A DNA stretch of 64,000 nucleotides from an uncultured Actinomycetota bacterium (lineage in GTDB: Bacteria > Actinomycetota > Actinomycetes > JAHEKZ01), in contig CAWGPZ010000006.1 in the NCBI GenBank assembly GCA_963824605.1, forward strand, positions 72,673-136,672. Reading direction: 5' to 3'. The notes under the pieces are model-generated. The model was not told where the DNA came from and made no database searches. It saw only the letters and a program-made list of their open reading frames with translations. Positions 5,804-60,678 of the stretch are shown piece after piece; the stretch's first letter is position 1, and each line of letters begins with the position of its first letter. A program made the position numbers and the translations under genes.

Positions 5804-6823
5804 ATGGCGCGCGTGGTGCTGGTCACCGGCGTCTCGCGGTACCTGGGTGGACGGCTGGCTCGCCTGCTTGCCAGTCACCCTGACATCGAGCGCGTTGTCG
5901 GCGTCGACGTAATTCCCCCTCCGGACGACCTCGGTCACGCAGAGTTCGTGCGCGCCGACATCCGCAACCCGGTCATTGCCAAGGTGATCAAGGCCGCCGC
6001 CGTCGACACGGTGGTGCACATGAACGTCATCGCGACGCCGATGGGCGCCGGAGGGCGCTCGGCGATGAAAGAGATCAACGTCATCGGCACGATGCAGCTG
6101 CTGGCGGCGTGTCAGCGGGAGCCATCGGTGCGCCAGCTCGTGGTGAAGTCGTCGGCCATGGTCTACGGCGTCTCGCCGAAGGACCCAGCACTCTTCACCG
6201 AAGACATGGAGGCCATTCGGCTGCCGCGCTCGGGATTCGCCAAGGACTCCGTCGAGGTCGAGGGCTACGTCCGCGGATTCGCGCGTCGTCGTCCCGACGT
6301 CGACGTCACGATGCTGCGTTTCGCGAACATCCTTGGCGCGGGTATCGACACACCGCTGTCGCGCTACCTCTCGCTGCCCGTGGTGCCGACCGTGATGGGC
6401 TTCGACGGCCGGCTGCAGCTCACGCACGAGGACGACGCGTTGGACGCCGTACAGACCGCTACCTTCGGCAACGCTCCGGGCACGTACAACGTGTCGGGAG
6501 ACGGCGTCCTGATGCTGTCGCAGGCGATCGCGCGGGCGGGGCGGTTGAATCTGCCGCTGCCGACGCCCGTGGCGTCGGTGACACGCGACGTCGTCAGGCG
6601 TTTTGGGCTCATCGACTTCACGTCCGAGCAGATCGAGTACTTCAAGTACGGGCGCGGCGTCGACACCAGTCTGATCAGAGATCAGCTCGGCTTCGTCCCG
6701 AAGTACTCGACGCTCGAGACATTCGATGCGTTCCTGCGTGCGCACCCCTTGGGCCGCATCATGCCGTGGGACGCGCCAGACGAACCGGCCCCGGTGTCGA
6801 GCATCGGGGGTGGCTTGGCGTGA
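5804..6823 (+). CDS. NAD-dependent epimerase/dehydratase family protein (GalE2/Rv0501-like)
   Basis: 339-aa ORF with an N-terminal Rossmann motif VLVTGVSRYLGGRL. Its position matches the Rv0501 position in the conserved synteny. Confidence 0.8.
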   Translation: MARVVLVTGVSRYLGGRLARLLASHPDIERVVGVDVIPPPDDLGHAEFVRADIRNPVIAKVIKAAAVDTVVHMNVIATPMGAGGRSAMKEINVIGTMQLLAACQREPSVRQLVVKSSAMVYGVSPKDPALFTEDMEAIRLPRSGFAKDSVEVEGYVRGFARRRPDVDVTMLRFANILGAGIDTPLSRYLSLPVVPTVMGFDGRLQLTHEDDALDAVQTATFGNAPGTYNVSGDGVLMLSQAIARAGRLNLPLPTPVASVTRDVVRRFGLIDFTSEQIEYFKYGRGVDTSLIRDQLGFVPKYSTLETFDAFLRAHPLGRIMPWDAPDEPAPVSSIGGGLA

Positions 6824-7721
6824 GCGATGCCAGGGTGATCCCGCTCAATCCCGAGCGCGAGCCGAACGACGGGGTGCGTCGTTCCCAGGAGAGCAGCAGC
6901 TGGCCGGTGCCCTGCGCTTCCTGAGGCGTCGGCTGGAGGGGTCGTACCAGGTCGACGACTTCGGCTTCGACCGAGAGCTCACCCGCGACGTCCTTGTGCC
7001 CGCGATGCGCCCGCTCTACGAGAAGTGGTTCCGGGTCGAGGTGCACGGGATCGAGAACGTGCCAGCTGACGGCGGCGCGCTGATCGTTGCCAACCACTCG
7101 GGCACCATCGCTCTCGACTCGCTCATGACCCAGGTGGCTCTTGCCGACCATCACCCAGCACATCGCGAGCTGCGAATGCTCGGCGCCGACATGGTGTTCG
7201 CCCTGCCCTTCGTGGGCACGGTGGCGCGTCGGGCCGGCCACACGCTGGCCTGCAACCCGGACGCCGAGCGGCTGCTCGAGGCGGGCGAGCTCGTGGGGGT
7301 GTGGCCCGAGGGGTTCAAGGGGGTCGGCAAGCCCTACTCCGAGCGGTATCGACTGCAGCGCTTCGGCCGTGGCGGATTCGTGTCGGCCGCACTGCGCACA
7401 CGCGTGCCGATCATCCCGACGTCCATCGTCGGGGCCGAAGAGATCTACCCGATCCTGGCCGACGCCAAGTTGCTGGCCCGGATGTTGGGCGTTCCCTACT
7501 TCCCGATCACCCCGACGTTTCCGTGGCTGGGGCCGCTCGGCATGATCCCGCTTCCGAGCAAGTGGCACATCGAGTTCGGCGAGCCGATCATGACTGACGT
7601 CTTCACCGACGGCGCCGCTGACGACCCCATGCTGATGTTCAACCTCACCGACCAGGTGCGTGAGACCATCCAGCACACGCTCTACAAGCTGCTCATGCAG
7701 CGTCGCAGCGTCTTCTTCTGA
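6820..7721 (+). CDS. Lysophospholipid (1-acyl-glycerol-3-phosphate) acyltransferase family protein; N-terminus probably disrupted by a 1-nt indel
   Basis: The main frame (ORF 6726..7721) has the HX4D motif (ANHSGTIALD) and FLRRRLEGSYQVDDFGFD. The conserved N-terminal peptide VSDARVIPLNPEREPNDG starts at the GTG at 6820, overlapping the upstream stop. That peptide is in a different frame, which stops at 6924. Confidence 0.7.
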
Positions 7722-7860
7722 CCCCAACGTCCTTGGGGCCATGTCACATGGGTTCGGTCATTTCGAACCAGCGCCCCATCATGCCTCCGACGGATCCTCA
7801 TTCCTTCATTCATGGGTAGGTGCATGGTTCGGTCATTTCGAACCGATGTGACATGGCCCC
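7722..7860. repeat. MITE-like intergenic repeat, copy 1 (TIR-to-TIR 7735..7860, preceded by a CCCCAA-N5-TTGGGG hairpin)
   Basis: It has perfect 15-bp terminal inverted repeats, GGGGCCATGTCACAT ... ATGTGACATGGCCCC. The module GGTTCGGTCATTTCGAACC occurs twice in direct orientation. Homologous copies lie at 30605..30744 and 60411..60546. Confidence 0.8.
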
Positions 7861-7871
7861 TAAGTTGCCGG

Positions 7872-8750
7872 TCACTTGCGGCGGCGGCTGGAGACGACTC
7901 CCGCGGCGACGCCGGCCGCCGCGCCCACAACAAGCGCCGACGGGACGCCGATGCGCGCGGCCTTGCGTCCGGTGCGGTAGTCGTGCACGTGCCAGCCCAG
8001 AGCCTTGGCGTGCCGACGCAGCTTTGCGTCCGGGTTGATGGCCACCGGCTGGCCGACGAGCGACAGCATGGGGATGTCGTTCGACGAGTCGGAGTAGGCA
8101 GAGCAGAGGGCCAGGTCGAGGTTCTCGCGCTCAGCGAGCGCGCGGACTGCCTCAGCCTTGGCCGGGCCGTGCAGCGGTGCCCCGGCGAGCTTGCCCGTGT
8201 ACACGCCGTTGGCGATCTCGGACACGGTGCCGAGGGCGCCGGTGAGCTCGAGCTTGCGCGCGATGAGTGAGGCCATCTCGACAGGCGCAGCCGACACGAG
8301 CCACACGCGTTGGCCGGCCCGCAGGTGGGTGCGCGTCAGCTCGATGGTCTGGGCGTACAGCTTGTCCTCGATGCGTTCGTCAAAGATCTCGTCGCCGAGT
8401 GAAACAACCTCGGCCACCTCGTGTCCGGCCACGAAACTGAGCGCGGCGTCGATGACGGAGGCGATGTCGTCGGTGTCTTCGCGACCGGCGACTCGGAACT
8501 TCGCCTGCTTCCACGCGAACGAGCTGACATCGCCCATGGTGAAGAACTTGCGCTTGGCCAGCCCCCGGGCCAGGTGAAAGAGAGAGGCTCCACGCACGAT
8601 CGTGTTGTCTATGTCGAAGAACGCAGCAGCGTACGGATCGACATTGAGCTCTTGGGTGGTCTCGGCGCGCTGTGCGGCTGCTTCGCCTGCGACGACGGCA
8701 GGGGGGCGCCTTGGTTGGCCGAAGGGGTCCGTGGGATCCGTGGGGGTCAC
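7872..8750 (-). CDS. HAD-IB family hydrolase (SerB-like phosphatase) with C-terminal membrane anchor
   Basis: 292-aa ORF with HAD motif I (FFDIDNTIV), later DSSNDIPML, and a hydrophobic C-terminal tail. Confidence 0.8.
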   Translation of the reverse strand: MTPTDPTDPFGQPRRPPAVVAGEAAAQRAETTQELNVDPYAAAFFDIDNTIVRGASLFHLARGLAKRKFFTMGDVSSFAWKQAKFRVAGREDTDDIASVIDAALSFVAGHEVAEVVSLGDEIFDERIEDKLYAQTIELTRTHLRAGQRVWLVSAAPVEMASLIARKLELTGALGTVSEIANGVYTGKLAGAPLHGPAKAEAVRALAERENLDLALCSAYSDSSNDIPMLSLVGQPVAINPDAKLRRHAKALGWHVHDYRTGRKAARIGVPSALVVGAAAGVAAGVVSSRRRK

Positions 8751-9670: not shown

Positions 9671-11191
9671 GTGAATGGCCCCACGCACCTTGGCGACTAT
9701 CTGACGCGCGCCGCCGCGACCCGGCCGGACCATCCCGCGCTCGTGGTCGGCGCCAGCCGGATGACCTGGGCGGACGTCGATCGGGCCGCCACCGCCTGCG
9801 CCGCGGGCCTGCAGTCCCGCGGACTCGAGCCGGGCGAGCGACTGGGCCTCTTCCTCGGTAACCGGCCCGAGTTCGTCATTGGCTACTTCGGGGCATTGCG
9901 TGCGGGACTCGTGGTGGTGCCGGTCAACCCGGCACTGACGGCGTCCGAGGTGGCCCAGCTGATCGCCCACGTCGAGCCCTCGCTGGTGGTTGTCGACCGT
10001 CACACCGCGCCGGTGGCCAGGGAGGCCGCTCCGCAGGTGCCTCAGGTGGTGGCAGCTGCAGGGGTCGGTGACGACTCATTTGATGCGCTGGTCGCCGCAG
10101 GCGCCGGACGCACCGTGGCCGATCCGGAAGGCGGTGAGGCCCTCGCCGTTGTCGTCTACACATCGGGCACGGGCGGCGACGCCAAGGGGGCGATGCTGAC
10201 GCACCGAGCCCTGATCGCAAACGTCGAGCAGGTCGCCGCGGCGCAGGTTTCGGTGGCTGAACCAGATGACGTCGTCCTCGTTCTGCTGCCGCTGACGCAC
10301 ATCTACTCCCTCGCCGGAACGATCGGTGCCGTCGTGCGTGCCGCGGCCACTGCCGTGCTCATCGACGGCGTGGACGTCGTTCGCGCTCTGCCGCTCGTGC
10401 CCCAGTACGGCATCACCAACGTTCCCGGTGCCCCCGCGCTGTGGGCCGCGTGGGCCGCATCCTCCGGGGCTGTCGACATGCTCGACGGCCTGCGCATCGC
10501 CTTCAGCGGGTCGGCTGCACTTCCTCCGGAAGTGCAGCACCGCGTCCACACCTTGACCGGCTGGTATGTCCACGAGGGGTACGGGCTGACCGAGGCGGCA
10601 CCCGGGGTCAGCTCGACCGTCGTGTCGGGCGACGCCAAGCCGGGGTCGGTCGGCAAACCTTTCCCTGGCGTCGAACTGCGCCTTGTCGACGACGACGGCG
10701 TCGACATCGACCCTGCGGACGGCGACCCAGGCGAGATCTGGATCAAGGGCGACAACCTCTTCAGCGGCTACTGGCCGGATGGAGCCGGTGGCCCCGACTC
10801 CGACGGTTGGTACGCGACCGGCGATGTCGCCTTCGTGGACGACGACGGCGACCTGCACATCGTCGACCGTCGCAAGGACGTCATCATCGTCAGCGGATTC
10901 AACGTGTATCCACATGAGGTCGAGCAGGTGCTGCTGCAGCACCCAGGTGTCCGAGAGGTTGCCGTGATTGGTCTCGCGGACGACCGGACGGGCGAGGCGG
11001 TCAAGGCGCTCGTGGTGCTCGCTGACCCCTCGACCACGGTTGACCAGCTGCAGGAGCATGCGGCCGAGCGACTTGCGCGGTTCAAGCGGCCACAGGTGAT
11101 CGAGTTCGTCGACGACCTTCCCCACTCACTCACCGGCAAGGTCGCCCGCGGGCGCGTCACCCGCGAGCAGAACGAGGCAGCCGGTGAGTGA
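9671..11191 (+). CDS. AMP-dependent acyl-CoA synthetase/ligase (long-chain fatty acid-CoA ligase type)
   Basis: Internal GTG of ORF 9398..11191. It carries the AMP-binding motifs VYTSGTGGDAKGAMLTH, GYGLTE, TGD and a C-terminal GKVAR. The upstream extension is Arg/Pro-rich and not protein-like. Confidence 0.8.
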   Translation: MNGPTHLGDYLTRAAATRPDHPALVVGASRMTWADVDRAATACAAGLQSRGLEPGERLGLFLGNRPEFVIGYFGALRAGLVVVPVNPALTASEVAQLIAHVEPSLVVVDRHTAPVAREAAPQVPQVVAAAGVGDDSFDALVAAGAGRTVADPEGGEALAVVVYTSGTGGDAKGAMLTHRALIANVEQVAAAQVSVAEPDDVVLVLLPLTHIYSLAGTIGAVVRAAATAVLIDGVDVVRALPLVPQYGITNVPGAPALWAAWAASSGAVDMLDGLRIAFSGSAALPPEVQHRVHTLTGWYVHEGYGLTEAAPGVSSTVVSGDAKPGSVGKPFPGVELRLVDDDGVDIDPADGDPGEIWIKGDNLFSGYWPDGAGGPDSDGWYATGDVAFVDDDGDLHIVDRRKDVIIVSGFNVYPHEVEQVLLQHPGVREVAVIGLADDRTGEAVKALVVLADPSTTVDQLQEHAAERLARFKRPQVIEFVDDLPHSLTGKVARGRVTREQNEAAGE

Positions 11192-11933: not shown

Positions 11934-11972
11934 CACAGCCGCCGGTCTCATAGCGTGAGACCGGCGGCTGTG
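11934..11972 (+). terminator. Stem-loop terminator after the DUF805 gene
   Basis: Perfect 17-bp inverted repeat, CACAGCCGCCGGTCTCA-tagcg-TGAGACCGGCGGCTGTG, followed by a T-containing tail (caactttgtg). Confidence 0.6.
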
Positions 11973-28652: not shown

Positions 28653-29870
28653 TACCTCGAGGGGCTCTTCATCGAGACGTTTCAGCGCCGGTGCCACGGA
28701 TGCTGCCAGAGCGAGAGCGACCGATCCAAGTGCGAAGGCGGCCAGTGCCGTCTCGACGCTGTAGGTCTCGACCACAAGACCAGCCACGGCGTATCCGATG
28801 GGGTAGATGCCGTAGGCCAGTGCAGTGACGACGCCCAGTGCCCTGCCGCGCATGTGCTCAGGTGTCCTGCGCTGCAGGGCAAGGTTGATGATCGGGTTCA
28901 TGGGGCCGAGCAGGATGCCGCCGGCGAAGCCTGCCGCCATCATCACGCCCGTCTCGGGCCAAATCGCGAACACGACCAGTGAGAGTGCAGCTCCCCAGAG
29001 CGAGACCGCGAACGTTCCACGCGGATGTGTCTGGTGTCCGAACGAGCTGTAGAGCAGGGCGCCGATCACCCCGCCGAAGCTGAAGGCCATGACGACAGCG
29101 CCGAGACCGACCGGGTCGTCGTTGCCCTGGTAGATCACCGGTAGCACGATCCCGATCACGGGGTAGGCGAGGCCGACGACACCGGTCGACAGCAGGACCA
29201 CCGTGCGCAGCGGGGCATCGCTGAAGACCAGGCGCAGCCCGTCCACCGTTCCCGCCCAGAAGTACGGACGGTTGTCGTAGTGCGGCCGCCCGGCTCCGGG
29301 TACGTGGACGAAAGCCAGCAGGACCGCTGACGCGATGAACGCCACGGCCATCGCCCAGAAGGCTGACTCGACGCCGATGGTGGCGATGAGACCGGCGCCG
29401 AAAGCGGGACCGACCAGGAACGCCAGGCCCCACACGGCTTCGTGGATTCCGTTGACGCGTTCGAGGCGCATGCCGGTGGCTTGTGAGACGCCGGTCAGCA
29501 TCGACTCACGCGCGGTGACCCCTGCAGGATCGAACACGGCGCCGAGGACGGCGAGGACGAGCACCCAGGTGAAGGTGAGACCGGTGGTGAGCGCCACGAT
29601 CGGGATCGCAGCAACCGACACGGCTGACATCAGGTCGCTGAAGACTGACGTGCGGCGGCGTCCGAGGGTGTCGACGAGCGTGCCGGAGAACAGTGAGGCG
29701 AGCAGCGTGGGAAGGCCGCTGACGAGCGCAACGAGACCGGCGGCGTCTGCGCGACCGGTGATGTCGAGGACCAGCCACGGCAGCGCGACCATCGAGACGC
29801 CGTTGGCAAGACCGGCGAGCAGCGTCGATCCCTCGAGGGCGACGAACGGCATGACACGGGTGCGGGTCAT
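28632..29870 (-). CDS. MFS transporter
   Basis: 412-aa ORF with about 12 TM helices and the MFS motif-A-like GTLVDTLGRRR. Confidence 0.8.
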   Translation of the reverse strand: MTRTRVMPFVALEGSTLLAGLANGVSMVALPWLVLDITGRADAAGLVALVSGLPTLLASLFSGTLVDTLGRRRTSVFSDLMSAVSVAAIPIVALTTGLTFTWVLVLAVLGAVFDPAGVTARESMLTGVSQATGMRLERVNGIHEAVWGLAFLVGPAFGAGLIATIGVESAFWAMAVAFIASAVLLAFVHVPGAGRPHYDNRPYFWAGTVDGLRLVFSDAPLRTVVLLSTGVVGLAYPVIGIVLPVIYQGNDDPVGLGAVVMAFSFGGVIGALLYSSFGHQTHPRGTFAVSLWGAALSLVVFAIWPETGVMMAAGFAGGILLGPMNPIINLALQRRTPEHMRGRALGVVTALAYGIYPIGYAVAGLVVETYSVETALAAFALGSVALALAASVAPALKRLDEEPLEVSVGASV

Positions 29871-30433
29871 GGCGCGTCCTGCGGTGGCGTGGCGATCCCG
29901 CTGACGATCGTGGTCATGACGAGCCTGGGGGCGTCCTGGAGCCAGATACGCCCCTCATCGGCGGTGCCCCAGGCCGTGAGGATGGCGCCCGCGTAGGCGT
30001 CGACGACCCACTTCACCGGAAGGTCGTCGCGCAGTGATCCGTCGGCCTGGCCGCGCTCGATCGCGTCGGAGACAGGCTCGAGCGCCTCGTACCAGCGTCG
30101 GATCAGGTCGCGGGCGTTGTAGACCTCGGGTTCGGCGTGCAGGAACGACAGGCTGGGTCCGAGGGGGACGACGGTGTCGGTGACGCGCTGCAGGGCGTCG
30201 ACCACCGGGCCCTCGTCGGGGTGAGCGCTCGCAATGGCCTCGGCCACGCGGTCGAGGGCATCCTCGACCAGGGCTCGGATCAGGAGCTCGCGGGTGGGGA
30301 AGTAGCGGTGCAAGGTGGTGCGTCCCAGGCCCGCGGTCTCGGCAACGATCGAGAGTGAGGCGGTGCTGTCCTTGCTGAGCACGACGACGGCGGCATCGAG
30401 CAGGGTGCGGCGGGTGTGGTCGGGGCGTCCCAT
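29867..30433 (-). CDS. TetR/AcrR family transcriptional regulator
   Basis: 188-aa ORF with the N-terminal HTH SIVAETAGLGRTTLHRYFPTRELL. Its stop overlaps the MFS gene start, indicating an operon. Confidence 0.85.
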   Translation of the reverse strand: MGRPDHTRRTLLDAAVVVLSKDSTASLSIVAETAGLGRTTLHRYFPTRELLIRALVEDALDRVAEAIASAHPDEGPVVDALQRVTDTVVPLGPSLSFLHAEPEVYNARDLIRRWYEALEPVSDAIERGQADGSLRDDLPVKWVVDAYAGAILTAWGTADEGRIWLQDAPRLVMTTIVSGIATPPQDAP

Positions 30434-30604
30434 GCTGCTCTCCAGATAGCCGGTCGTGATAGGTGGTCCAGGTGGGACACTTCAGTTCCATTTCGGAACA
30501 CGAATGCCCCACTCTACCCGATGCCCACATCGAGGTGCAACGCCGCCTCAACGCCGAAGCGCAGCCTCAACTCCGCAGCGCGGCTCTCCCCACCAGGTTG
30601 GGGA

Positions 30605-30744
30605 CCCCAACCAATTGGGGCCATGACGCATGGGTTCGGTCATTTCGAACCGGTGGTCACTCCATCGATCCCCAGAAATCGAAGCGTGTGGACCAATGGT
30701 GGTGGAGATAGTTCGGTCATTTCGAATCGGTGTGTCATGGCCCC
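30605..30744. repeat. MITE-like intergenic repeat, copy 2 (TIR-to-TIR 30617..30744)
   Basis: The ends are GGGGCCATGACGCA ... TGTGTCATGGCCCC. It has two direct copies of the GTTCGGTCATTTCGAA module and a leading CCCCAA-N4-TTGGGG hairpin. It lies between the menA stop and the tetR start. Confidence 0.8.
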
Positions 30745-30753
30745 TGAAGGGGG

Positions 30754-31629
30754 TTAGGGCAGGGCGAGACCGATGCCGAGGATGAGGCCATAGATGAGCT
30801 GGATCTGGCCGGTGGCGGCCAGCACCGAGACCAGGTCGCGGCCGGACGCCCCCGAGACCACGGCTCCGATCGGCGGCGCCACCGGGATAAAGGCCACCAG
30901 GGCGATGAGGGCGGCCGGAGTCCAACCCACGGACACGACGACGACGACGGCCAGGGCTACCCCGAGTCAGGGCGACGTACAGGACGCGGGTACCTCGGTC
31001 GCCGAGTCGAACCGCCAGGGTCTGTTTCCCGACCGCGGCATCGGTCGGGATGTCGCGCAGGTTGTTGACGACCAGCAGGGCCACTGCCAGTGCCCCGACG
31101 CCACACGCCACCACGAGAGCCAGCCACGTCCACTGCTCGGTCTGGATGTAGGCCGTCCCCATCGTGGCCACGAGACCGAAGAACACGAACACGCTGACCT
31201 CGCCGAGGCCGCGGTATCCATACGGCGTCCGTCCGCCTGTGTAGTACCAGGCCGCCGCAATGCACGCCGCGCCCACCGCGAGCAGCCACCACTGCGCCGT
31301 CAGTGCCACGATCGCCAGGCCCGCAAACGCACCGACCCCGAAGCTGACGCCGGCGGCGCGCTTCACCGCCTCCGGCGCAGCGACACCGGTTGCGGTGAGC
31401 CGCATGGGCCCTACGCGTTCATCATCGGTTCCCCGTACGCCGTCGCTGTAGTCGTTCGCGAAGTTGACGGCCACCTGAAAGGCGAGCGCGACGACCAGCG
31501 CCAGGAGCGCGAGCATCGCGTCGAATGACGAGTAGTACGCAGCGACGCCGGTGCCCGCGGCAACCGGGGCGACAGCAGCGGCAGTGTGCGCGGTCGCGCG
31601 CCCTGCCACCACTCCTGCGGCGTCGCCAT
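30754..31629 (-). pseudogene. menA: 1,4-dihydroxy-2-naphthoate polyprenyltransferase with two frame disruptions (near 31578-31584 and 30960-30970)
   Basis: The N-terminus MATPQEWWQGARPRTLP (ORF 31411..31629) and the C-terminus SVGWTPAALIALVAF..IQLIYGLILGIGLALP (ORF 30754..30936) share one frame. The roughly 610-nt core (AAVAPVAAGTG..NFANDYSDGVRGTDD..NNLRDIPTD) is in another frame (ORF 30548..31612). Confidence 0.85.
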
Positions 31630-36514: not shown

Positions 36515-37933
36515 GTGCGGGTTGACGGCTGGCCGTCATCGCGTTTGGATCGCATGGTGGGCTACGTGCACGTCGGCGCCGGCGCGCCACTGCTCGGCAC
36601 GCTGACAGGTGAGGTCGACTCCGTCATCGTGGTCGGGGCTGGCGCTGCAGGTGTGACGGTCGCGAACGCCCTGACGGGTGCAAAGGTCCCCACCGTAGTT
36701 CTCGAAGCCCGGGACCGCGTTGGTGGTCGGATCCACACCGTTGACCTCGGTTCCGCGCCGGTCGACCTCGGCGCAAGTTGGATTCACAACCCTCGGGACA
36801 ACCCGTTAAGCGACCTCGCCCGCTCCCTTGGGATCTCGCAGGTTCCCTTCGAGGCCTTTGACGAAGCGTGCGGGTGGGATCCGGCTTCCGGTGACCGGGT
36901 GCCGTCCGCCGAGTTTCGGAATCTGTACGCAACGGCGGAGCAGGTGCTCGCACAAGCCCTGGAGGGCCCGGATGTTCGTCTGCAGACTGGAATCGAGAAG
37001 GCCGCGGCTGAACTAGACTTCCCCGAGCGGTCGCGTGCAAGAGTGTTGGCGCTGGCTCGCGTGTTCACCGAAGCGGACTCATCCGGGTGGCTGGAGGAGC
37101 TGACCGTCCCTGGTTTTCCGGCGAACACCCTTGAGTTTGACGGTTCGCCCATGGGGGACGTGCCGGTGGGTGGTTACCGCGAGCTCGTGGGTGCCCTGGC
37201 TGCTGGCCTCGACGTCCAGCTGGGCTGTGCCGTCACATGGATTGAAGTCGGAGCCGACGGTGTCCGGGTCGGTTGCGAGGATGGGTCGGAGTTTGCCGCC
37301 TCCCATGCGGTCGTGACTGTTCCCTTGGGCGTGCTCAAGGGAAGGTCGATTGACTTCCGTCCAGCCCTGGACTCGTCGAGGTCCCACGCCATCGATCGAC
37401 TTGGGTTCGGCAGGTTCGACAAGCTGGTCATGCGTTACGACCACTCCTACTGGCAGGACATCGACGTCAGTCACCTCGTCTGCACCCCGTCGGACGGCTC
37501 GCCTGCGCCTCAGGGTCTGTTGAGCCAGGACGGCATCCTCGGTCAACCGATCATCATGGCTTTCGCGTTCGGATCAACGCACGCCTGGCTGGCTGACAGT
37601 GAACTGGAGGAGGTGACGGCCGCGGCACACGATCTGCTCTGTCGCGCGCTTGGCAAGGAGCTTCCTCCGCCCGTCGAGTCGCTGCGCAGCGAGTGGTGGC
37701 GGGACCCGTGGACCCGAGGGGCGTACACCTACCTCAAGGAGGGTGCGACGTACGACGACCTCGAAACCCTGGGCAGGCCACATGCCGGGCGCGTGCTCTT
37801 CGCGGGCGAGGCGACCGGTGCGGCGAGGACCGGCTTCGTCGACGGCGCGATCCTGACCGCAGTGCGCGAGGTCAAGCGCCTCACCGGACGCGACTCTGCC
37901 CTCTTGGAGCGACTACCCAGAAGTAACGTGTGA
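36515..37933 (+). CDS. Flavin-containing amine oxidase family protein
   Basis: 472-aa ORF with the dinucleotide motif VIVVGAGAAGVTVANAL, EARDRVGGRI, and a C-terminal FAGEATG. The start is uncertain. Confidence 0.75.
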   Translation: MRVDGWPSSRLDRMVGYVHVGAGAPLLGTLTGEVDSVIVVGAGAAGVTVANALTGAKVPTVVLEARDRVGGRIHTVDLGSAPVDLGASWIHNPRDNPLSDLARSLGISQVPFEAFDEACGWDPASGDRVPSAEFRNLYATAEQVLAQALEGPDVRLQTGIEKAAAELDFPERSRARVLALARVFTEADSSGWLEELTVPGFPANTLEFDGSPMGDVPVGGYRELVGALAAGLDVQLGCAVTWIEVGADGVRVGCEDGSEFAASHAVVTVPLGVLKGRSIDFRPALDSSRSHAIDRLGFGRFDKLVMRYDHSYWQDIDVSHLVCTPSDGSPAPQGLLSQDGILGQPIIMAFAFGSTHAWLADSELEEVTAAAHDLLCRALGKELPPPVESLRSEWWRDPWTRGAYTYLKEGATYDDLETLGRPHAGRVLFAGEATGAARTGFVDGAILTAVREVKRLTGRDSALLERLPRSNV

Positions 37934-37986
37934 GTGTGCTGAGGCCATAGCGTCATCCAACTCACACGTTGTGGTGCCAGGACGGG

Positions 37987-38955
37987 TCAGCCGACTGAGG
38001 CCTTCTTCGTCTCCTCGATGATCGCGGGAAGAACCTTGCTGACGTCGCCGATGATGGCGTAGTCGGCGTAGCCCATGATCGCGGCTTCGGGGTCGGTGTT
38101 GATGACGATCATCGTCTTGGAGTTACGGCACCCGGCGATGTGCTGCGTGGCTCCGCTGATGCCGCAGGCGATGTAGAGGTCGGGCGCGATCTTGGTGCCC
38201 GTCTGGCCCACCTGCTCGATGTGCGGACGCCAGCCGTTGCCGGTGACGACGCGCGAGCAGCCGATCGTGCCGCCGAGCAGCTCGGCAAGCTCTTCCAGCG
38301 GTGCGAAGCCCTCGGCGCTGCCGACTCCCCGTCCGCCGGCCACGACCACCTTGGCGTCGGCCAGCGAGACGCCTGACGACTCGTCGGTGGCCTCGGCCTG
38401 CTTGGCCACGACCAGCAGATCGGCGTCGGCCAGCTCGGGAGTGAACTCGGCGACCTCACCGGCGCCGGAGCCGCCAGGTTCGGCGGCCACCGTGTGCGGC
38501 ACGAGCGTTACGAGCGCGGGTGCGCCGTGCAGGTTCGCCTCTTCGATGAGGCTGCCACCCCAGCGTGCGCGCACCACCTGCGTGGGCGAGCCCGGCGTCA
38601 CCTTGACGCAGTCGGCTGCCACCGGCAGGTCGGTGAGCGCGCCCAGGTGAGCCATCACCTCGTTGCCGCGTGGAGAGCCGGCCGCGAGGACCACCGATGC
38701 ACCGGTCCGAGACGCCACCTCGGACGCCGCGCGCGCTGCGGCAACTGGGGCGTAGCTGGTGAACACATCGTGCACAGCGACATGCACCGTGGCCACGCCT
38801 TGCGCACCAAGCGCAGCCGCGACGCCGGCGTCGCCGACGACGAGCGCCTCCAGTGGTTCACCGGTGGACGCCGCGAGCTCGCGCCCGTACGTCACCGTCT
38901 GCAACGAAGCCTCGTCGATCTCGCCATTCTCGTGGTCGACCAGTACCAGCACCAT
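37987..38955 (-). CDS. etfA: Electron transfer flavoprotein subunit alpha
   Basis: 322-aa ORF with the C-terminal FAD-binding region GGRGVGSAEGF..IACGISGATQHIAG. Confidence 0.9.
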   Translation of the reverse strand: MVLVLVDHENGEIDEASLQTVTYGRELAASTGEPLEALVVGDAGVAAALGAQGVATVHVAVHDVFTSYAPVAAARAASEVASRTGASVVLAAGSPRGNEVMAHLGALTDLPVAADCVKVTPGSPTQVVRARWGGSLIEEANLHGAPALVTLVPHTVAAEPGGSGAGEVAEFTPELADADLLVVAKQAEATDESSGVSLADAKVVVAGGRGVGSAEGFAPLEELAELLGGTIGCSRVVTGNGWRPHIEQVGQTGTKIAPDLYIACGISGATQHIAGCRNSKTMIVINTDPEAAIMGYADYAIIGDVSKVLPAIIEETKKASVG

Positions 38956-46089: not shown

Positions 46090-47530
46090 ATGTTCGTCAA
46101 CCGCATGCCGCGTTACGAGGTCCTGTCCGAGGACTCGATGGCCACCTTGGATCGCGGATGGCGACGCATCGTCAGTGAGATCGGCGTCGAGTTCATGAAG
46201 CCCGAGGCGCTCGACCTCTTTCGCGAGGCTGGTCAGAAGGTCGAGGGGGACAACGTCTTCTTCGACCCCGAGTGGGTGCTGGCCCAGGTGGCGAAGGCTC
46301 CGCGCGAGTTCGACATCCAGGCCCGCAACCCCGAGAACAACGTCCACATCGGTGGCGACCACATGGTGTTCTCCAGCGTCTACGGACCACCGTTCGTGCG
46401 CGAAGGCGCGGTGCGCCGCGAGGGCACCTTTGACGACTACCGCAACTTCGCCAAGCTGGCCCAGTCGTTCAGCGCCATCGACAGCGTCGGGGGAGTGGTC
46501 GCCGAGCCGAACGACACGCCGCTCGACTCCAGGCACCTCGACATGCTCTACGCGACGCTGACCCTCACCGACAAGATGTACATGGGAAACGTGGTCAGCG
46601 GGGTGAACGCCCGCGACACGATCGCCATGGGAGAGATCGTCTTCGGTGGCCGAGAGGCGCTCGAGCAGACGCCGGCCAGCATCTCGCTGATCAACTGCAA
46701 CTCACCCTTGCGGTGGGACGACCGCATGTTGGACGCGCAGTTCGAGTACTCCGCTGCCTTGCAGCCGGTTGTGCTGACTCCGTTCCTGCTGATGGGTGCC
46801 ATGTCGCCGGTCACGATCCCTTCCGCCCTGGCACAGCAGATCGCTGAGGCTCTGACGGGTATCGCGCTCTCACAGCTGATCCGGCCAGGGTCGCCGGTCG
46901 TGTTCGGATCGTTCCTCTCGAACATCGACATGCAGTCGGGCTCCCCGCAGTTCGGAACTCCCGAGTCGGCCATGGGCTTGCTGTGCACCGGTCAGATCGC
47001 CCGCCACTTCGGACTCCCCTTCCGCGGTGGGGGTGGCCTGAACTCGTCGCAGATGCCCGATGCGCAGGCGGCGTGGGAGGCGCTCATGACGATGATGCCC
47101 ACGTTCTTGTCGGGCACGAACTTCGTGATGCACACCGCCGGCTGGCTCGAAGGCGGGCTCGTCTCGTGCTTCGAGAAGTACGTCATGGACGTCCAGGTGC
47201 TCGAGATCCTGCAGAAGGAGTTCACGCCGCTCGAGATCACCGACGAAGACCTCGCCTTCGACGCCCACCAAGAAGTCGGGACACGGCGGGCACTTCCTCG
47301 GCGCCATGCACACGATGGAACGCTTCCGCACCTGCTTCTACCGGCCGTGGCTGTCGTCGTCGGACAACTTCGAGCGGTGGAACAAGAACGGCGCCAAAGA
47401 CACAGCGGCCAGGGCGAACGAGATCTACCACCAGAAGATCGACGAGTACGAGCAGCCGCCACTCGACGAGGCCATCCGCCAAGAGCTCGAGGACTACGTC
47501 ATCAGGCGACGCGCCGAGCTCGGCGACTAG
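46090..47530 (+). pseudogene. MttB-superfamily (non-pyrrolysine) quaternary-amine:corrinoid methyltransferase, probable glycine betaine type, with 1-nt frame disruption at about 47281
   Basis: ORF 46090..47595 is MttB-like up to ..DLAFDAHQEVG and then becomes Arg-rich nonsense. ORF 47306..47530 (MHTMERFRTCFYRPWLSSSDNFERW..) supplies the conserved C-terminus. Removing one base in GGGACACGG restores EVGHGGHFLGAMHTMERF. There is no in-frame TAG. Confidence 0.85.
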
Positions 47531-47539
47531 ACCCCACAA

Positions 47540-47581
47540 CGCGGAAGTTCCCTGGGGCTATAGCCCCAGGGAACTTCCGCG
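47540..47581. terminator. Bidirectional stem-loop terminator between convergent mttB and betaine-binding protein genes
   Basis: Perfect 19-bp inverted repeat, CGCGGAAGTTCCCTGGGGC-tata-GCCCCAGGGAACTTCCGCG. Confidence 0.75.
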
Positions 47582-47598
47582 TGACGAACTGCTGACGG

Positions 47599-48576
47599 TC
47601 AGCCGCCGTCGATCCAGGCAGCTACCTTGTCGGGGTTGTCGTCGATCCACTGCTGAGCGGCGTCCTCACCTGACATGCCGTCGTTCGCGATGTAGAGCGC
47701 CACCTGGTTCTGGTCGTCGTTCGTCCAGGTGAAGTTCGACACCAGATCGGCAGCCGGGCTGCCGGACGCCATGAAGTCGGCGCTCGCGATCTTGTCGAGG
47801 ATGTACTCGGGGTAGTCGCACGCGACGGTTGCCGGGTCGGCGTCGCAGCCTTCCTCCCACGCCGGGAGGTCGACCTTGACGAGCGGCACCTCGGAGAGGA
47901 ACCACTGTGGCTCGTAGAAGTAGCCGATGTAGAACTCCTTGTTCTCCTCGGCGTTGCGGAAGCCCTGGATCAGTGCGGCTTCGCTTCCGGCGTAGACGAC
48001 CTCGAAGTCGAGCTTGAGGTTCTCGACCAGAGCCTCGTCGTTGGTGACGAACGACGGGTCGCCGTCCCACAGCGTGCCCTTGTCGCCGGTCTCGGCAGTG
48101 GAGAAGTCACTCGCGTACTTGTTGAGGTTCTCCCAGTTGGTGATGTCGGGGTTCTCCTCGGCGAGCCACGGTGGCACGTACCAGCCGATGACTCCGACGT
48201 TTCCGTTGGGTCCGACGATGACCGCCGTCTCTTGCTTCTCGACGTACTCCTTCTTGAGGTCGTCGTGGCCCCAGTTCTCGATCACGACGTCAACCTTGCC
48301 AGAGCCGAAGCCCTGCCAGGCGATCTCTTCCTTGAGCTTCAGGTAGTTGGTGTTGCACCCCAGCTCCTGTGCGGCCACCTCGCCGACCACGTAGGCAGAT
48401 GCCTCGTAGCCGACCCATGGGTTGATCGCCATGTTGAAGTCACCGCAGTCGGCACCGCTGGCACTGCCACCGCTGTCAGCTTCTTCGATGTCGCCGCCGC
48501 CACAGGCGGCGAGCACCAGGCTCGCGGCGGCAGCCAAGGCGGCGGCGCGTCCGGCCCGTCTTCTCGTGATTCGCAC
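47599..48576 (-). CDS. Glycine betaine/choline ABC transporter substrate-binding lipoprotein (ProX/OpuAC type)
   Basis: Internal GTG of ORF 47599..48792, preceded by AAGAGGAG. It has a lipobox (LVLAAC) and an OpuAC fold with aromatic-cage-type residues (NPWVGYEAS, IENWGH, GWYVPPW). Confidence 0.85.
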   Translation of the reverse strand: MRITRRRAGRAAALAAAASLVLAACGGGDIEEADSGGSASGADCGDFNMAINPWVGYEASAYVVGEVAAQELGCNTNYLKLKEEIAWQGFGSGKVDVVIENWGHDDLKKEYVEKQETAVIVGPNGNVGVIGWYVPPWLAEENPDITNWENLNKYASDFSTAETGDKGTLWDGDPSFVTNDEALVENLKLDFEVVYAGSEAALIQGFRNAEENKEFYIGYFYEPQWFLSEVPLVKVDLPAWEEGCDADPATVACDYPEYILDKIASADFMASGSPAADLVSNFTWTNDDQNQVALYIANDGMSGEDAAQQWIDDNPDKVAAWIDGG

Positions 48577-48616
48577 TCGAACTCCTCTTATTCGGGCCGC
48601 AGGGGTGCGGCGTGGG

Positions 48617-50797
48617 TCAGGCACTTTCAGCGCGTCCGTAGCGCGCTGCGGTATGGACGGTGATGCGGTCGAGCATGATCCCGAGCGCCGTGATGGCGAT
48701 CCCGGCGGCGAGGCCCTTCCCGAAGTCTTCTCTCTGTGAGAAGCCGTTGATGACGAGGAAACCGAGTCCGCCGCCACCCACCAGGCCGCCAATGACGACC
48801 ATGGACAACACGAAGAGCAGGCCCTGGTTCGCTGACAGCACGATCGAGCCTTTCGACATCGGCAGCTGCACCTTGCGGATCATCTGCCAGCGACTGGTGC
48901 CGAGCGCCTGTGCGGCCTCCACGGTGGGCCCTGACACACTGCGGACGCCGTCGGCAGTGATCTTGATCGCCACCGGTGAGGCATAGAGAACCGCCGCGAT
49001 GATGGCCAGGAACCGGCCGGCGGGAAACAGAGCGAGGGCCGGCACGAGGTAGACCAAGGAGGGCAGAGTCTGCAGCCCATCGAGGAAGGGACGCACCATC
49101 GCGTCCACCCGGCGGCTGCGACCCATCCACACCCCGATCACGATGCCGAAGATCATGACGAAGAGCGTGGCCACCAGTGTCATCGTGAGCGTGACCATCG
49201 AGTCGTTCCAGAGGCCGACGGCAAAGATCAGTGAAAGACAGGACGCGGCCGGGATCAGGGCGCCGCCACCACCGACAGCAGCCGAGCCGATGAGCAGCGC
49301 CAGGACGACACCCCAGTAGATGACCCAGGACATGTCCAATGGGCTGTTTGCCCAGTAGCCCGACATCAAGACTGCGACCGCGCCCAGCGCCACGGCCGTT
49401 GCCAGTCGGGGGGTGGGGGCTTTGCCGGCACCGCCGAGCAGGATCGCGATCGCCAGGATGCCGAGTGACACGAGCCACCAGGGCGATTCGACGAACCAGG
49501 CATCCAGACCCAGGGGTGGGTTCAGGAAGACCTCGGTGAACGCGTCGCTGAGCCAACGGGTGAACGAGCCGATGGAACTGGCGATGGAGTCGGTGACGTC
49601 GTTCATCCAGTTCGCGATGTTCCGTCCCAGATCGCTCTCGGGGAACACGTTCCATCGCAACTGGTTGTGCGAGATGACCGCCACCACGACAACCACGGCA
49701 GCGGAGATGCCGAGAATGAGGCGTCGGCGCTTCTCGTCGACGTTCCGTCGCGAGGTTGCCTCCGAACGCTCTCCGGCGGCTGCAGTGGCCCGGTCGAGCA
49801 TGATCGCCATGAATACGATGCACATGCCGCTGACGAACGCGATTCCGACGTTCAGGACGCTCAGTGCCTCGATGATCGGGATACCGAGGCCAGGACCGGC
49901 GATGAATGCGGCGATGATGGCCATCGAGAGTGCGGCCATGATGGTCTGGTTCAGGCCCACGATGATCGTGCGCCTGGCCATGGGCAGCTGCACCTTGGTC
50001 ATCAACTGCGACGACGTCGACCCGAGGGCGGTCGTCGCCTCGATGGTGCTGGGCGAGACGGTGCTCAGCCCGTAGGCCGAGATGCGGATCAGCGGCGGAA
50101 GGGCGTAGATCAAGGTGGCAACGACTGCGCCAGGGTTGCCGATTCCGAAGATGAGCACGAGCGGTCCGAGGTAGGCGAACGACGGCATCGTCTGCATCGT
50201 GTCGAGCACGGGCGTCAGCGCGGAGGTCACACGTTTGCTACGCGACATCCAGATGCCGGTCGGGAGACCGATGAGTACGCAGATCACCACCGAGACACCG
50301 GTGATGATCAGGGTGTCGATGCTCTTCTCCCAGTAGCCGAGCCAGCCGAACGAGAGCATGACGGCCAAGGCCAAGATCGCAATGCGCAGGCCGGAGAACG
50401 CGTAGGCGACCCAGACGGCGAGCGCGACGACGCCGGCCCAGCCCACCTGGGCGACACCTTGGGGTCGGCTCGAGTCGGAGACGAAGATGTTCTGCAGCTG
50501 GGTGACCGTCCAGTCGAGAGCCTCGCTGATCCAGTCGATGGGCAGGAAGATCGGGTTGCCGTTGAACTTCGCCGTCTCGATCGTGTTGCGCAGCTCGTTG
50601 AGCCACTCCTGGAACGCCGTCAGCTGTGAGACGGGGAGGTCTTGAGTGCCCTTGCCCTGGAAGATCACCCCGAGCACGACCCAGACAGTAACGACGACAC
50701 CAAGGGCGATCCAGCGCAGTCGGCTGCCGCTCTCGTCCTCAGGTGGCGGGGGAGTCTCCTCGACGGGGTGCTCCACCTCGGTGAGCTCGATGGTCAC
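48617..50797 (-). CDS. Glycine betaine/proline ABC transporter permease, tandem-duplicated (two BPD_transp_1 domains)
   Basis: 726-aa membrane ORF with two EAA-loop-type segments ([23 protein letters not shown] and [23 protein letters not shown]). Confidence 0.85.
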
Positions 50798-59674: not shown

Positions 59675-60383
59675 GTGCAGACTTCGGGTGTGACTCGCGC
59701 CCAGTTGGACAAGCAACCGTTCGACGTTGCGCGCATGTTCGATGACGTCGCCGCCAAGTACGACGTCACCAACGACATCCTTTCGCTGGGTCAGGACCGT
59801 CGGTGGCGGCAGTGCGGTCGTGGAGGCGCTGGATCCGCAGGCGGGCGAGCGGATCCTCGACCTGGCGGCGGGGACGGGCACGTCGTCCGAGCCGCTGAGC
59901 AGGCGGGGAGCGTTCGTCGTCCCGTGCGACTTCTCGCAGGGCATGCTGGCGGTGGGGAAGGAGCGCCGTCCAGAGCTGGCCTTCGTGGCCGGTGACGGGT
60001 TGCAGCTGCCGTTCGCTGACGCCAGCTTCGACGGGGTCACGATCTCGTTCGGGCTGCGGAACCTGCACGACACCGAGGCAGGGCTCGCTGAACTGTTGCG
60101 CGTGACGCGTCCGGGCGGGCGGATCGTCGTGTGCGAGTTCAGCCAGCCGGTATGGGGCCCATTTCGCACGGTCTACAGCGAGTACCTGATGCGCGCCCTG
60201 CCCCCCACAGCCCGGGCGGTGTCCAGCAACCCCGAGGCGTACGTGTATCTCGCGGAGTCGATCAGGGCCTGGCCCGACCAACCGCACCTGGCTGCGCTCA
60301 TGCAGCAAGCAGGGTGGTCGTCGGTCGCCTGGCGCAACCTCTCCGGGGGCATCGTGGCCCTGCACCGCGGATTCGCCCTCTAA
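59675..60383 (+). pseudogene. menG: Demethylmenaquinone methyltransferase (UbiE/MenG) with 1-nt frame disruption near 59811-59815
   Basis: ORF 59675..59995 gives ..[31 protein letters not shown] and then nonsense. ORF 59727..60383 gives the rest: [43 protein letters not shown]. The join falls at CGGCAG-T-GCGGTC. Confidence 0.8.
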
Positions 60384-60410
60384 CCCCTGCGGCGCCCCTC
60401 GCCACATTTC

Positions 60411-60546
60411 GGGGCCATGACACACCCGTTCGGAAAGACCGAACTATCTGCGTCATCATCGATCCACAGATCTCTTCAGGGCGACGGGTGGGTGGCGCGG
60501 CGGCTCGAAATGACCGAACCGGTGTGTCATGGCCCCGAAACTGGGG
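60411..60546. repeat. MITE-like intergenic repeat, copy 3 (inverted relative to copies 1 and 2; TIR-to-TIR 60411..60536)
   Basis: The 16-bp TIRs are GGGGCCATGACACACC ... GGTGTGTCATGGCCCC. The internal CGAAATGACCGAAC modules are reverse complements of those in copies 1 and 2. A trailing CCCC-gaaact-GGGG hairpin follows. It lies between menG and the menJ-like gene. Confidence 0.8.
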
Positions 60547-60678
60547 TGGGGGCGGGTAGCCCTGGGGTCGCTGTCCATTGTCGGAAATCCGTGGAGGGCA
60601 ATACACTGGCGTTCGCTCGTGAATGCATTCACAAAGTCGATCATCCCGCCGATCACCCCTGTCTCCTGAGGACGCCGC

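Follow-up and report, generated by a model that had tools for sequence, protein, structure and literature searches.

The element considered here is an imperfect palindrome of about 126 bp that occurs three times in a 64,000-nucleotide stretch of DNA from an uncultured Actinomycetota bacterium (GenBank assembly GCA_963824605.1, contig CAWGPZ010000006.1, positions 72,673 to 136,672); the whole of this stretch is called the window below. Several described repeat families are comparable to it. ERIC/IRU elements of enterobacteria, imperfectly palindromic and about 127 bp long, lie in intergenic regions that are transcribed and have shorter and longer variants formed by internal deletions or insertions at fixed points; roles in mRNA stability have been proposed for them, and we know of no transposase that moves them. 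REP/BIME elements are dispersed extragenic palindromes found at gene 3′ ends or between convergent genes, which stabilize mRNA or act as terminators and are bound by gyrase and IHF. Translation termination is reported to be affected when a REP lies near a stop codon, and REPINs are inverted REP doublets of about 100 bp. The Correia (Neisseria), RUP (pneumococcus) and Nezha (cyanobacteria) elements are intergenic, measure 100–160 bp, carry terminal inverted repeats (TIRs) and form long RNA hairpins that can terminate transcription or be cleaved by RNases. They have target-site duplications (TA in the case of Correia) and are polymorphic for insertion between strains, and a parent insertion sequence (IS) can often be identified. 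The attC sites of chromosomal integrons, such as the Vibrio cholerae repeats, are imperfect palindromes of 120–130 bp with conserved ends and a variable center, placed at gene 3′ ends.

In Mycobacterium tuberculosis, 147 copies of the TRIT element were described as sequence-conserved, mostly bidirectional palindromes narrowly placed at stop codons (Gardner et al. 2011, the RNIE paper, PMC3152330). In the account of TRIT given there, it is reported only in Mycobacterium, and a sequence-specific binding factor was inferred by its authors (PMC3152330).

Set against that account, the present family is like TRIT in combining conserved sequence and structure with many copies, a narrow distance to stop codons, a bidirectional context and confinement to one actinobacterial lineage. 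This likeness is one of kind. TRIT, as described, is centered at about −8, inside the coding sequence, whereas the core of the present family starts 8–15 nucleotides (nt) after the stop; unlike TRIT, it is built as module, center and module, with two direct 19-nt modules and fixed lengths of 126 or 137 bp. By the general description of ERIC/IRU, the family resembles these elements in size, palindromy and the existence of length variants, but it belongs to another phylum, has no sequence relation to them, and shows a stop spacing and direct inner modules that are not known from ERIC elements. Placement at 3′ ends and convergent junctions is shared with REP/BIME; unlike REP and REPIN-RAYT systems, the family has no GTAG-type 5′ tetranucleotide, its inner modules are direct and not inverted, and no repeat-flanked RAYT gene was present in the loci examined. 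With Correia, RUP and Nezha, which are miniature inverted-repeat transposable elements (MITEs), it shares size, TIRs, intergenic location and an RNA hairpin fold, but none of their three hallmarks (target-site duplication, insertion polymorphism and parent IS) was found for it. The conserved ends, the variable center and some half-elements beside gene-sized insertions or deletions recall attC, but here the copies lie dispersed among housekeeping genes, most of them at convergent junctions, and form no head-to-tail cassette array; the attC core sites RYYYAAC/GTTRRRY are absent from the family consensus, and no integrase was found near the copies. We rate the family as a sequence-conserved extragenic palindrome at gene ends that is unusual in three respects: ends conserved beyond the flanking genes, quantized lengths and twin direct modules.

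Results

A Dispersed Repeat Family With Conserved Ends and Quantized Lengths

A first-pass annotation of the window had proposed three copies of a previously unannotated repeat with inverted termini and an inner hairpin module present twice per copy in the same orientation, and all of these features were recovered. The cores lie, all three as first placed, at 7735–7860 (+ strand, 126 bp), 30617–30744 (+ strand, 128 bp) and 60411–60536 (− strand, 126 bp), the third copy being inverted relative to the other two as judged from the asymmetric 7-nt loop GTCATTT. The window carries indel errors or pseudogenes, and length differences of 1–2 bp, such as the 128 bp of copy 2, may not be real. The terminal sequence GGGGCCATGWCRCA was exact at all six window termini (7735, 7860, 30617, 30744, 60411, and 60536). 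Allowing up to two mismatches, 11 matches were obtained in the window (G+C content 66.9%) against 3.5 expected, and the five non-terminal ones all had two mismatches. The 19-nt module GGTTCGGTCATTTCGAACC gave five window matches at up to three mismatches against 0.01 expected, a sixth, diverged module being located at 60427–60445; each copy holds two modules in direct orientation.

The general anatomy was drawn from about 45 sites, in which the termini are conserved. The 126-bp consensus consists of GGGGCCATGTCACATGGGTTCGGTCATTTCGAACC, a 56-bp center and GGTTCGGTCATTCCGAACCGGTGTGACATGGCCCC, and the palindrome continues outward in the order C-run, ATTTC, core, GAAAT and G-run. Identity among copies averages 89% in the ends and 49% in the center. 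The center had been called variable, and it does evolve fast, but it is not random, since it retains a weak palindrome (ACCCATC...GATGGGT; in full ..ACCCATC..GTCCACA / TGTGGAC..GATGGGT..). Likewise, the small CCCC-N4-6-GGGG hairpin that had been assigned to one terminus is present, but at both termini of most members and as part of the longer palindrome. The complete elements (n = 46) fall into three length classes with nothing in between: 51 bp (4 elements), 125–128 bp (34, of which 23 measure exactly 126 bp) and 136–138 bp (8). The two modules are spaced 75 or 86 bp apart in the long classes, and the direction of their loops agrees within 41 of 42 long copies, the remaining one being ambiguous and none opposed.

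A pattern scan of one genome per species yielded at least 113 stretches, so that copy numbers per genome are lower bounds. Among the 113 stretches listed, 39 were true members of the family. The other 74 are unrelated to it, most of them representing one conserved coding sequence, GAMPQMFGTITVSDGISMG, which we take to be ilvD and which accounts for the cyanobacterial and proteobacterial matches of the scan. Members were found in the metagenome-assembled genomes (MAGs) Ww61, Ww60, CAN_BIN24 and MFD09779.bin.3.245, all from uncultured Actinomycetes, and on single contigs of one MAG labeled Nanopelagicales and of two other MAGs. With a stricter pattern, 24 metagenome contigs were recovered, including near-identical versions of all three window copies, and therefore the same species occurs in those samples; copy 2, for instance, is near-identical in contigs L124 and L145 (L numbers are labels of the compared genome and metagenome stretches). 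The further copies that the first-pass annotation had proposed to count in relatives thus exist, in at least 39 genome stretches and 24 metagenome stretches. Its dozens of members are spread over metagenome contigs and the MAGs of at least four or five related species of Actinomycetes; these counts include orthologues and near-identical metagenome copies, and the number of independent sites is roughly 20–25. The stricter pattern had no match in viral contigs, and a phage association was dropped on this ground. No Rfam family matched the window at gathering level, permissive Rfam scans of copies 1 and 3 returned noise (at most 15.7 bits against cut-offs of at least 35), and in the literature no match to the terminal or module sequences and nothing relevant by keyword was found. 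Hence, this is a dispersed and previously undescribed hairpin repeat family, in agreement with the first description of it as unannotated.

Orthologous Sites Are Occupied and the Ends Evolve More Slowly Than Adjacent Genes

The three window copies have orthologues at the same junctions in other genomes. Copy 1 is matched in L008 and L025, with ends 96% identical; copy 2 in L037 (ends 99% identical) and L098 (91%); and copy 3 in L114 (MenG 99% identical), L115–L117 (91%) and L118 (85%). Most other copies also pair between genomes, and the flanks at these orthologous sites, those of the window copies included, are 73–93% identical. The compared loci were picked for carrying the pattern, which biases the sample toward filled sites.

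Conservation was measured over 18 orthologous pairs. The terminal 35 + 35 bp were 86–100% identical in 17 pairs and 76% in one, the flanking 330 bp were 73–93% identical in most pairs, the fastest-evolving codon phase of the flanks reached 46–82%, and the center 43–95% in 17 of the 18 pairs. The ends thus evolve more slowly than the adjacent genes, and the center drifts at about the silent-site rate without changing its length. Furthermore, variants of the right loop (GTCATTC vs. GTCATTT) track the site and not the genome; conservation is therefore exerted per locus and does not come from homogenization among copies. In a copy that does not move, selection for transposition has no means of keeping the ends intact, and the pattern thus indicates a host function.

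The first-pass annotation had held that a lack of further copies, together with the same sequence at orthologous sites in relatives, would favor conserved cis-elements over mobile ones. Further copies do exist, but the orthologous sites are filled and the ends are conserved above the flanks, and this second half of the result points to conserved cis-elements. Together, orthology and end conservation argue against currently mobile elements and for conserved cis-elements.

Elements Are Placed at Stop Codons, Mostly Between Convergent Genes

Of 115 element ends with enough flanking sequence, 73 face the stop codon of a converging open reading frame (ORF) supported by its third-position G+C content, and at 38 of these 73 ends the distance from that stop to the terminus, counted to its first G, is 8–15 nt. 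In many copies the C-run follows the stop without a gap (TGACCCC, TAGCCCCC or TAACCCCC). Among the 25 long copies of the genome loci and the window, about 15 are located at convergent junctions, about 8 at tandem junctions and at most 1 at a divergent junction, where our own rough background estimate is 25, 50, and 25%, respectively. Half-elements were found at tandem or divergent junctions and at no convergent one, and at most sites their terminus faces the stop of the upstream gene.

All three window copies had been said to follow stop codons immediately. This holds for copy 1 on both sides and for copies 2 and 3 on one side, but not for the other sides of the latter two. Copy 1 fills the gap between the convergent genes of an acyltransferase (6726–7721, +) and a HAD hydrolase (7872–8750, −), 13 nt from the TGA at 7719–7721 and 11 nt from the minus-strand TGA at 7872–7874. 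Copy 2 is located downstream of menA (minus strand), 11 nt past its true stop (TAA, 30756–30758, minus strand; placed there by tblastn with the MenA of L037), and upstream of a TetR-family gene (29867–30433, −). Copy 3 lies between menG/ubiE, whose TAA stop (60381–60383) is 27 nt away, and the promoter region of a geranylgeranyl-reductase-like gene (60679–61959).

Predicted Folding

The window copies were predicted to fold as RNA at −54 to −77 kcal/mol; the minus strand of copy 2 has a z-score of −2.7, and the other five strands have z-scores of −3.8 to −7.9. Copy 1 folds at −75.1 kcal/mol (z = −7.9), copy 3 at −75 to −77 kcal/mol, and the 51-bp short form still reaches −41 to −53 kcal/mol. 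The long RNA hairpin that had been anticipated was therefore obtained for all three copies, and the suggested part as a terminator or stabilizer agrees with their position, as a predicted role. Two arrangements, an extended hairpin in which module pairs with module and a cloverleaf in which each module folds on itself, were indistinguishable (94.7 and 94.0% of cells paired, respectively). The C/A mismatch at TIR position 10, which becomes G-U on the other strand, was considered as a clue to the functional RNA strand. It was dropped because an orthologous copy in flipped orientation (L080 vs. L103, see below) shows that the asymmetry travels with the element and not with the transcribed strand.

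Shortened Forms, Rearrangements and Relatives Without the Family

The 51-bp forms are deletion derivatives in which the sequence between the two direct modules was lost (126 − 75 = 51); a long copy (L070) and a short one (L020) occupy one and the same site, with flanks 91% identical. The solo left half-elements, about 14 in the genome loci, are remnants beside gene-sized insertions or deletions, and several of them adjoin such differences between relatives. The genes next to half-elements are ordinary (a TIM-barrel enzyme, a PALP-family pyridoxal-phosphate-dependent enzyme, a racemase, a PASTA-domain Ser/Thr kinase, DAHP synthase, and Fpg). A composite was observed at L082:2674–2809, with a degraded left part followed by an intact 51-bp short form at 2759–2809; the orthologous sites carry a half-element (L058) and a short form (L111), which makes three forms at one junction.

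At L080:7106–7243 and L103:3705–3840 both flanks are orthologous and the whole element is inverted, including the fixed C/A asymmetry at terminus position 10, while L041 and L089 share one flank only. The half-element of L056 and L097 corresponds in L058 to DNA of similar length that cannot be aligned. In addition, two inverted left half-elements bracket an ORF of 348 residues (L021:3622–4668) at L021:3551–4745, and the same arrangement is found at L134:711–1905 and in L122. This ORF had only a weak AbiEi_4 match (E 0.03) and no NCBIfam match, and its C-terminal part (..LEVDSREHH..) is likened here, as an assumption of ours supported by no search, to a DUF559-type nuclease motif. It was rejected as a parent transposase on account of the weak AbiEi_4 match and of an arrangement conserved in three related genomes. 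These rearrangements show that the elements take part in recombination and do not show transposition.

More distant relatives have other hairpins at the menG junction. In L119 (MenG 84% identical) a simple hairpin with a 25-bp stem (−44 kcal/mol, L119:10696–10770) is present, and its C-rich CCCCAACCCCAAAC and G-rich GTTTGGGGTTGGGG arms are similar to the family's outer flanks; it looks like the junction in an uncolonized state. In L120 (GCA_027117675.1; MenG 82%) the junction is occupied by a different palindrome of about 138 bp (9960–10097, −62 kcal/mol) with termini GGGTGCAACGTCACG. The window itself contains three hairpins outside the family. A perfect 44-bp palindrome without a loop (ACGCGGAAGTTCCCTGGGGCTA followed by TAGCCCCAGGGAACTTCCGCGT) lies at 47539–47582, at the junction of the convergent genes 46090–47595 (+) and 47599–48792 (−); a hairpin with 21-nt arms lies at 37925–37970, between the convergent genes 36515–37933 (+) and 37987–38955 (−); and a hairpin with a perfect 17-bp stem and a 5-nt loop lies at 11934–11972. 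Since unrelated hairpins occur at these junctions, a hairpin is what stays constant there, and the sequence family is lineage-specific.

Modules, Flanks and Neighboring Genes of the Window Copies

In copy 1 the left outer flank (7722–7734, +) consists of the C-run and spacer CCCCAACGTCCTT, directly 3′ of the TGA stop, a layout that recurs across the family. Its left module (7751–7769, +; GGTTCG-GTCATTT-CGAACC) and its right module (7826–7844, +), 75 bp apart and in the same orientation, are both exact. Copy 2 has an exact left module at 30633–30651 (+), a right module with two mismatches in direct orientation at 30710–30728 (+; AGTTCGGTCATTTCGAATC), and a right outer flank at 30745–30758 (−) in which the spacer and G-run TGAAGGGGG are followed by the menA stop. 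In copy 3 the module at 60502–60520 (−; GGTTCGGTCATTTCGAGCC) has one mismatch, and the diverged one at 60427–60445 (−; AGTTCGGTCTTTCCGAACG) is direct with it. The extended palindrome of this copy covers 60393–60554, with 41-nt arms (60393–60433 and 60514–60554) that are 83% complementary and include the C-rich and G-rich outer flanks.

The copies are 23–30 kb apart, and their neighbors in the window are housekeeping genes, including genes of the menaquinone pathway, cytochrome c assembly and NADH dehydrogenase. No tRNA or tmRNA genes were found in the window. Compared with close homologues, menA has two frameshifts (at about 30968 and 31579, minus strand) and menG has one (at about 59810), which are either assembly indel errors, perhaps from long reads, or signs of pseudogenes. 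The spurious ORF 30548–31612 appears to read through copy 2 because menA is frameshifted.

Between copy 3 and the geranylgeranyl-reductase-like gene, a block at 60576–60633 is conserved and was kept in L114–L120, even where the repeat element is missing. It contains CATTGTCGG (60576–60584) and AATACACT (60600–60607), which look like a −35/−10 promoter pair, and the palindrome CGTGAATGCATTCACA (60618–60633), which looks like an operator.

Discussion

The reading that we prefer, with a probability of about one half, is that the family is an old and dispersed set of imperfect palindromes at gene 3′ ends, each a host-retained hairpin that is bidirectional and terminator-like or transcript-protecting. 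When the neighboring gene is transcribed, or both genes where two converge, the RNA would form a hairpin of about 60 bp beginning roughly 10 nt after the stop codon, which is roughly where the edge of a terminating ribosome is expected. Such a hairpin would mark, end or protect the 3′ end of the transcript and insulate neighboring genes from each other, and the element would act in both directions, as a terminator or as a 3′-end stabilizer. It would be read by a sequence-specific trans-acting factor, either an RNA- or DNA-hairpin-binding protein or a nuclease. A reader of this kind is probable because the terminal 35 nt are conserved at the level of primary sequence, down to the 7-nt GTCATTT loops and the fixed mismatches. 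We infer that the element is transcribed, that it serves termination or stabilization and that a trans-acting factor exists.

Several observations weigh against this host hairpin. No U-tract follows the hairpin 3′ on either strand, the flanks reading ...GGCCCC-GAAAT-GGGG and GAAAT/AATT-GGGG, and a scan for a terminator consensus found none at copy 1; canonical intrinsic termination is therefore unlikely. Mycobacterial RNA polymerase is reported to require a U-tract at intrinsic terminators (PMC3993855). The stems are highly conserved, with an RNAalifold covariation term of −0.68 and double changes in 2 of 25 pairs. Position 10 of the TIR pairs as T-A, A-T or C-G in 14 of 25 copies and is mismatched in the other 11, and position 16 is mostly a G-G mismatch. 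With covariation almost absent, the pairing is inferred from conserved palindromy and is not proven. The inversion between L080 and L103 shows, moreover, that orientation is not fixed at one site. Finally, the conserved primary sequence and the step from 126 to 137 bp, about one helical turn, fit a role at the DNA level equally well.

Such a role would consist in a protein that binds the double-stranded element at its two direct, in-phase modules and its termini. It could be a topoisomerase or gyrase, a nucleoid protein, or a roadblock terminator sited where supercoils accumulate through convergent transcription, as has been proposed for gyrase sites of REP/BIME. Gyrase wraps about 130 bp of DNA, and REP/BIME elements bind it. 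The conservation of primary sequence without covariation and the persistence of fixed mismatches speak for this view, as do the identical asymmetric modules in direct orientation 75 or 86 bp apart, the difference between the length classes of about one B-DNA turn (about 11 bp), the enrichment between convergent genes and the free orientation relative to genes. Nevertheless, the narrow spacing of 8–15 nt from the stop and the half-elements, which mostly face an upstream stop, would tie the element to transcript or translation rather than to DNA topology. The palindrome with its 41-nt arms exceeds any plausible protein site, and the helical-phase argument has only about four independent sites of the long class behind it. 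We hold a DNA-level site to be a serious rival of low probability. The element could, in principle, be a small gene: an ATG in the left terminus opens a frame of 42 codons in copy 1 (MSHGFGHFEP...WFGHFEPM) that runs through both modules to a TGA in the right terminus, and both the length of 126 bp and the spacing of 75 bp between modules are multiples of three. This was rejected, with almost no probability left to it, on the grounds of third-position G+C content (about 40% in the first ten codons, counted by eye, against 76–92% in real genes of the window), of copies of 125, 127, 128, 136, and 137 bp that break the frame, and of the orthologous site occupied in both orientations. Copies with TGTGTCAT have no stop, the variable TIR position 10 would be a first codon position, and there is no ribosome-binding site.

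The first-pass annotation had called the repeats MITE-like, and in its stronger form this would make them selfish, non-autonomous elements of the MITE, REPIN or Correia kind, moved now or recently by a transposase encoded elsewhere. Such an element would prefer the apex of existing terminator hairpins with a C-arm and a G-arm as a safe site, which would explain its position at stop codons. The family is indeed a short non-coding element with TIRs, dispersed in dozens of copies whose inverted termini are conserved. Its outer C-rich and G-rich arms are like the simple hairpin of L119, so that the core looks as though placed at the apex of a hairpin; L120 has a different palindromic family at the same junction; the element is absent from one junction in one genome (L058 vs. 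L056 and L097); a whole element is flipped at one site; and some synteny breaks and gene-sized insertions or deletions adjoin elements. Nevertheless, no direct target-site duplication was present in 28 aligned copies, the flanks being mirror images (..CCCC-ATTTC, core, GAAAT-GGGG..), and no transposase was found among the genes neighboring the window copies, two absences that had been remarked on at first sight. A search for a parent IS with the same TIRs at the 39 family loci, 8 syntenic loci, 24 metagenome contigs and the window neighbors found none, and neither a RAYT (IS200/IS605-like) gene flanked by inverted REPs nor a GTAG-like motif was detected in about 1 Mb of loci; no locus examined held any transposase or RAYT-like gene. 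Comparison of empty with filled sites gave no clean pair: sites with both flanks matched were filled, the L058 matches excepted, and at this one gap the element has given way to DNA of similar length that cannot be aligned. Almost every comparable site is occupied in all relatives, the ends of old copies are more conserved than neighboring genes, variants follow the site, and viral contigs hold no copies. Centers cluster by site, and therefore dispersal predates the split of these species, which also counts against mobility. Without a target-site duplication, a parent IS or transposase, or a clean empty site, the MITE-like label was not upheld, and present or recent transposition appears doubtful. 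A mobile origin long ago is possible, and a selfish element targeting hairpin apices may explain the first spread of the family, but not its present conservation.

For practical purposes, the family can be used as a marker of this uncultured clade, and annotators should be aware that gene callers extend ORFs through the element. Canonical terminators made of a hairpin and a U-tract are scarce in high-GC actinobacteria, and the family bears on how transcripts are ended and protected there. Beside TRIT of mycobacteria, it is a second, independent palindrome with conserved sequence whose distance to stop codons is fixed. It goes beyond the published account of TRIT, as far as that account extends, in that single copies persist at their junctions despite flank identities of about 73–93%, that the ends are held more tightly than the genes, and that sister lineages carry other hairpin families. 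This persistence, the tight ends and the replacement of one hairpin by another point to a selectable function with a sequence-specific reader rather than to junk DNA, and the conserved 35-nt end provides an exact bait for finding the factor. More speculatively, and with a low probability in our judgment, high-GC actinomycetes that have no U-tract terminators might use lineage-specific, standardized palindromic cassettes as factor-dependent, bidirectional 3′-end signals. A dedicated, sequence-specific protein would recognize, on RNA or DNA, the twin GTCATTT loops together with the conserved ends of 35 nt, and in the course of evolution whole families would be replaced at the same junctions, as at menG, where L120 has another family and L119 a bare hairpin. 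If this were true, TRIT would be one instance of a general, unrecognized system of termination and insulation with a co-evolving factor.

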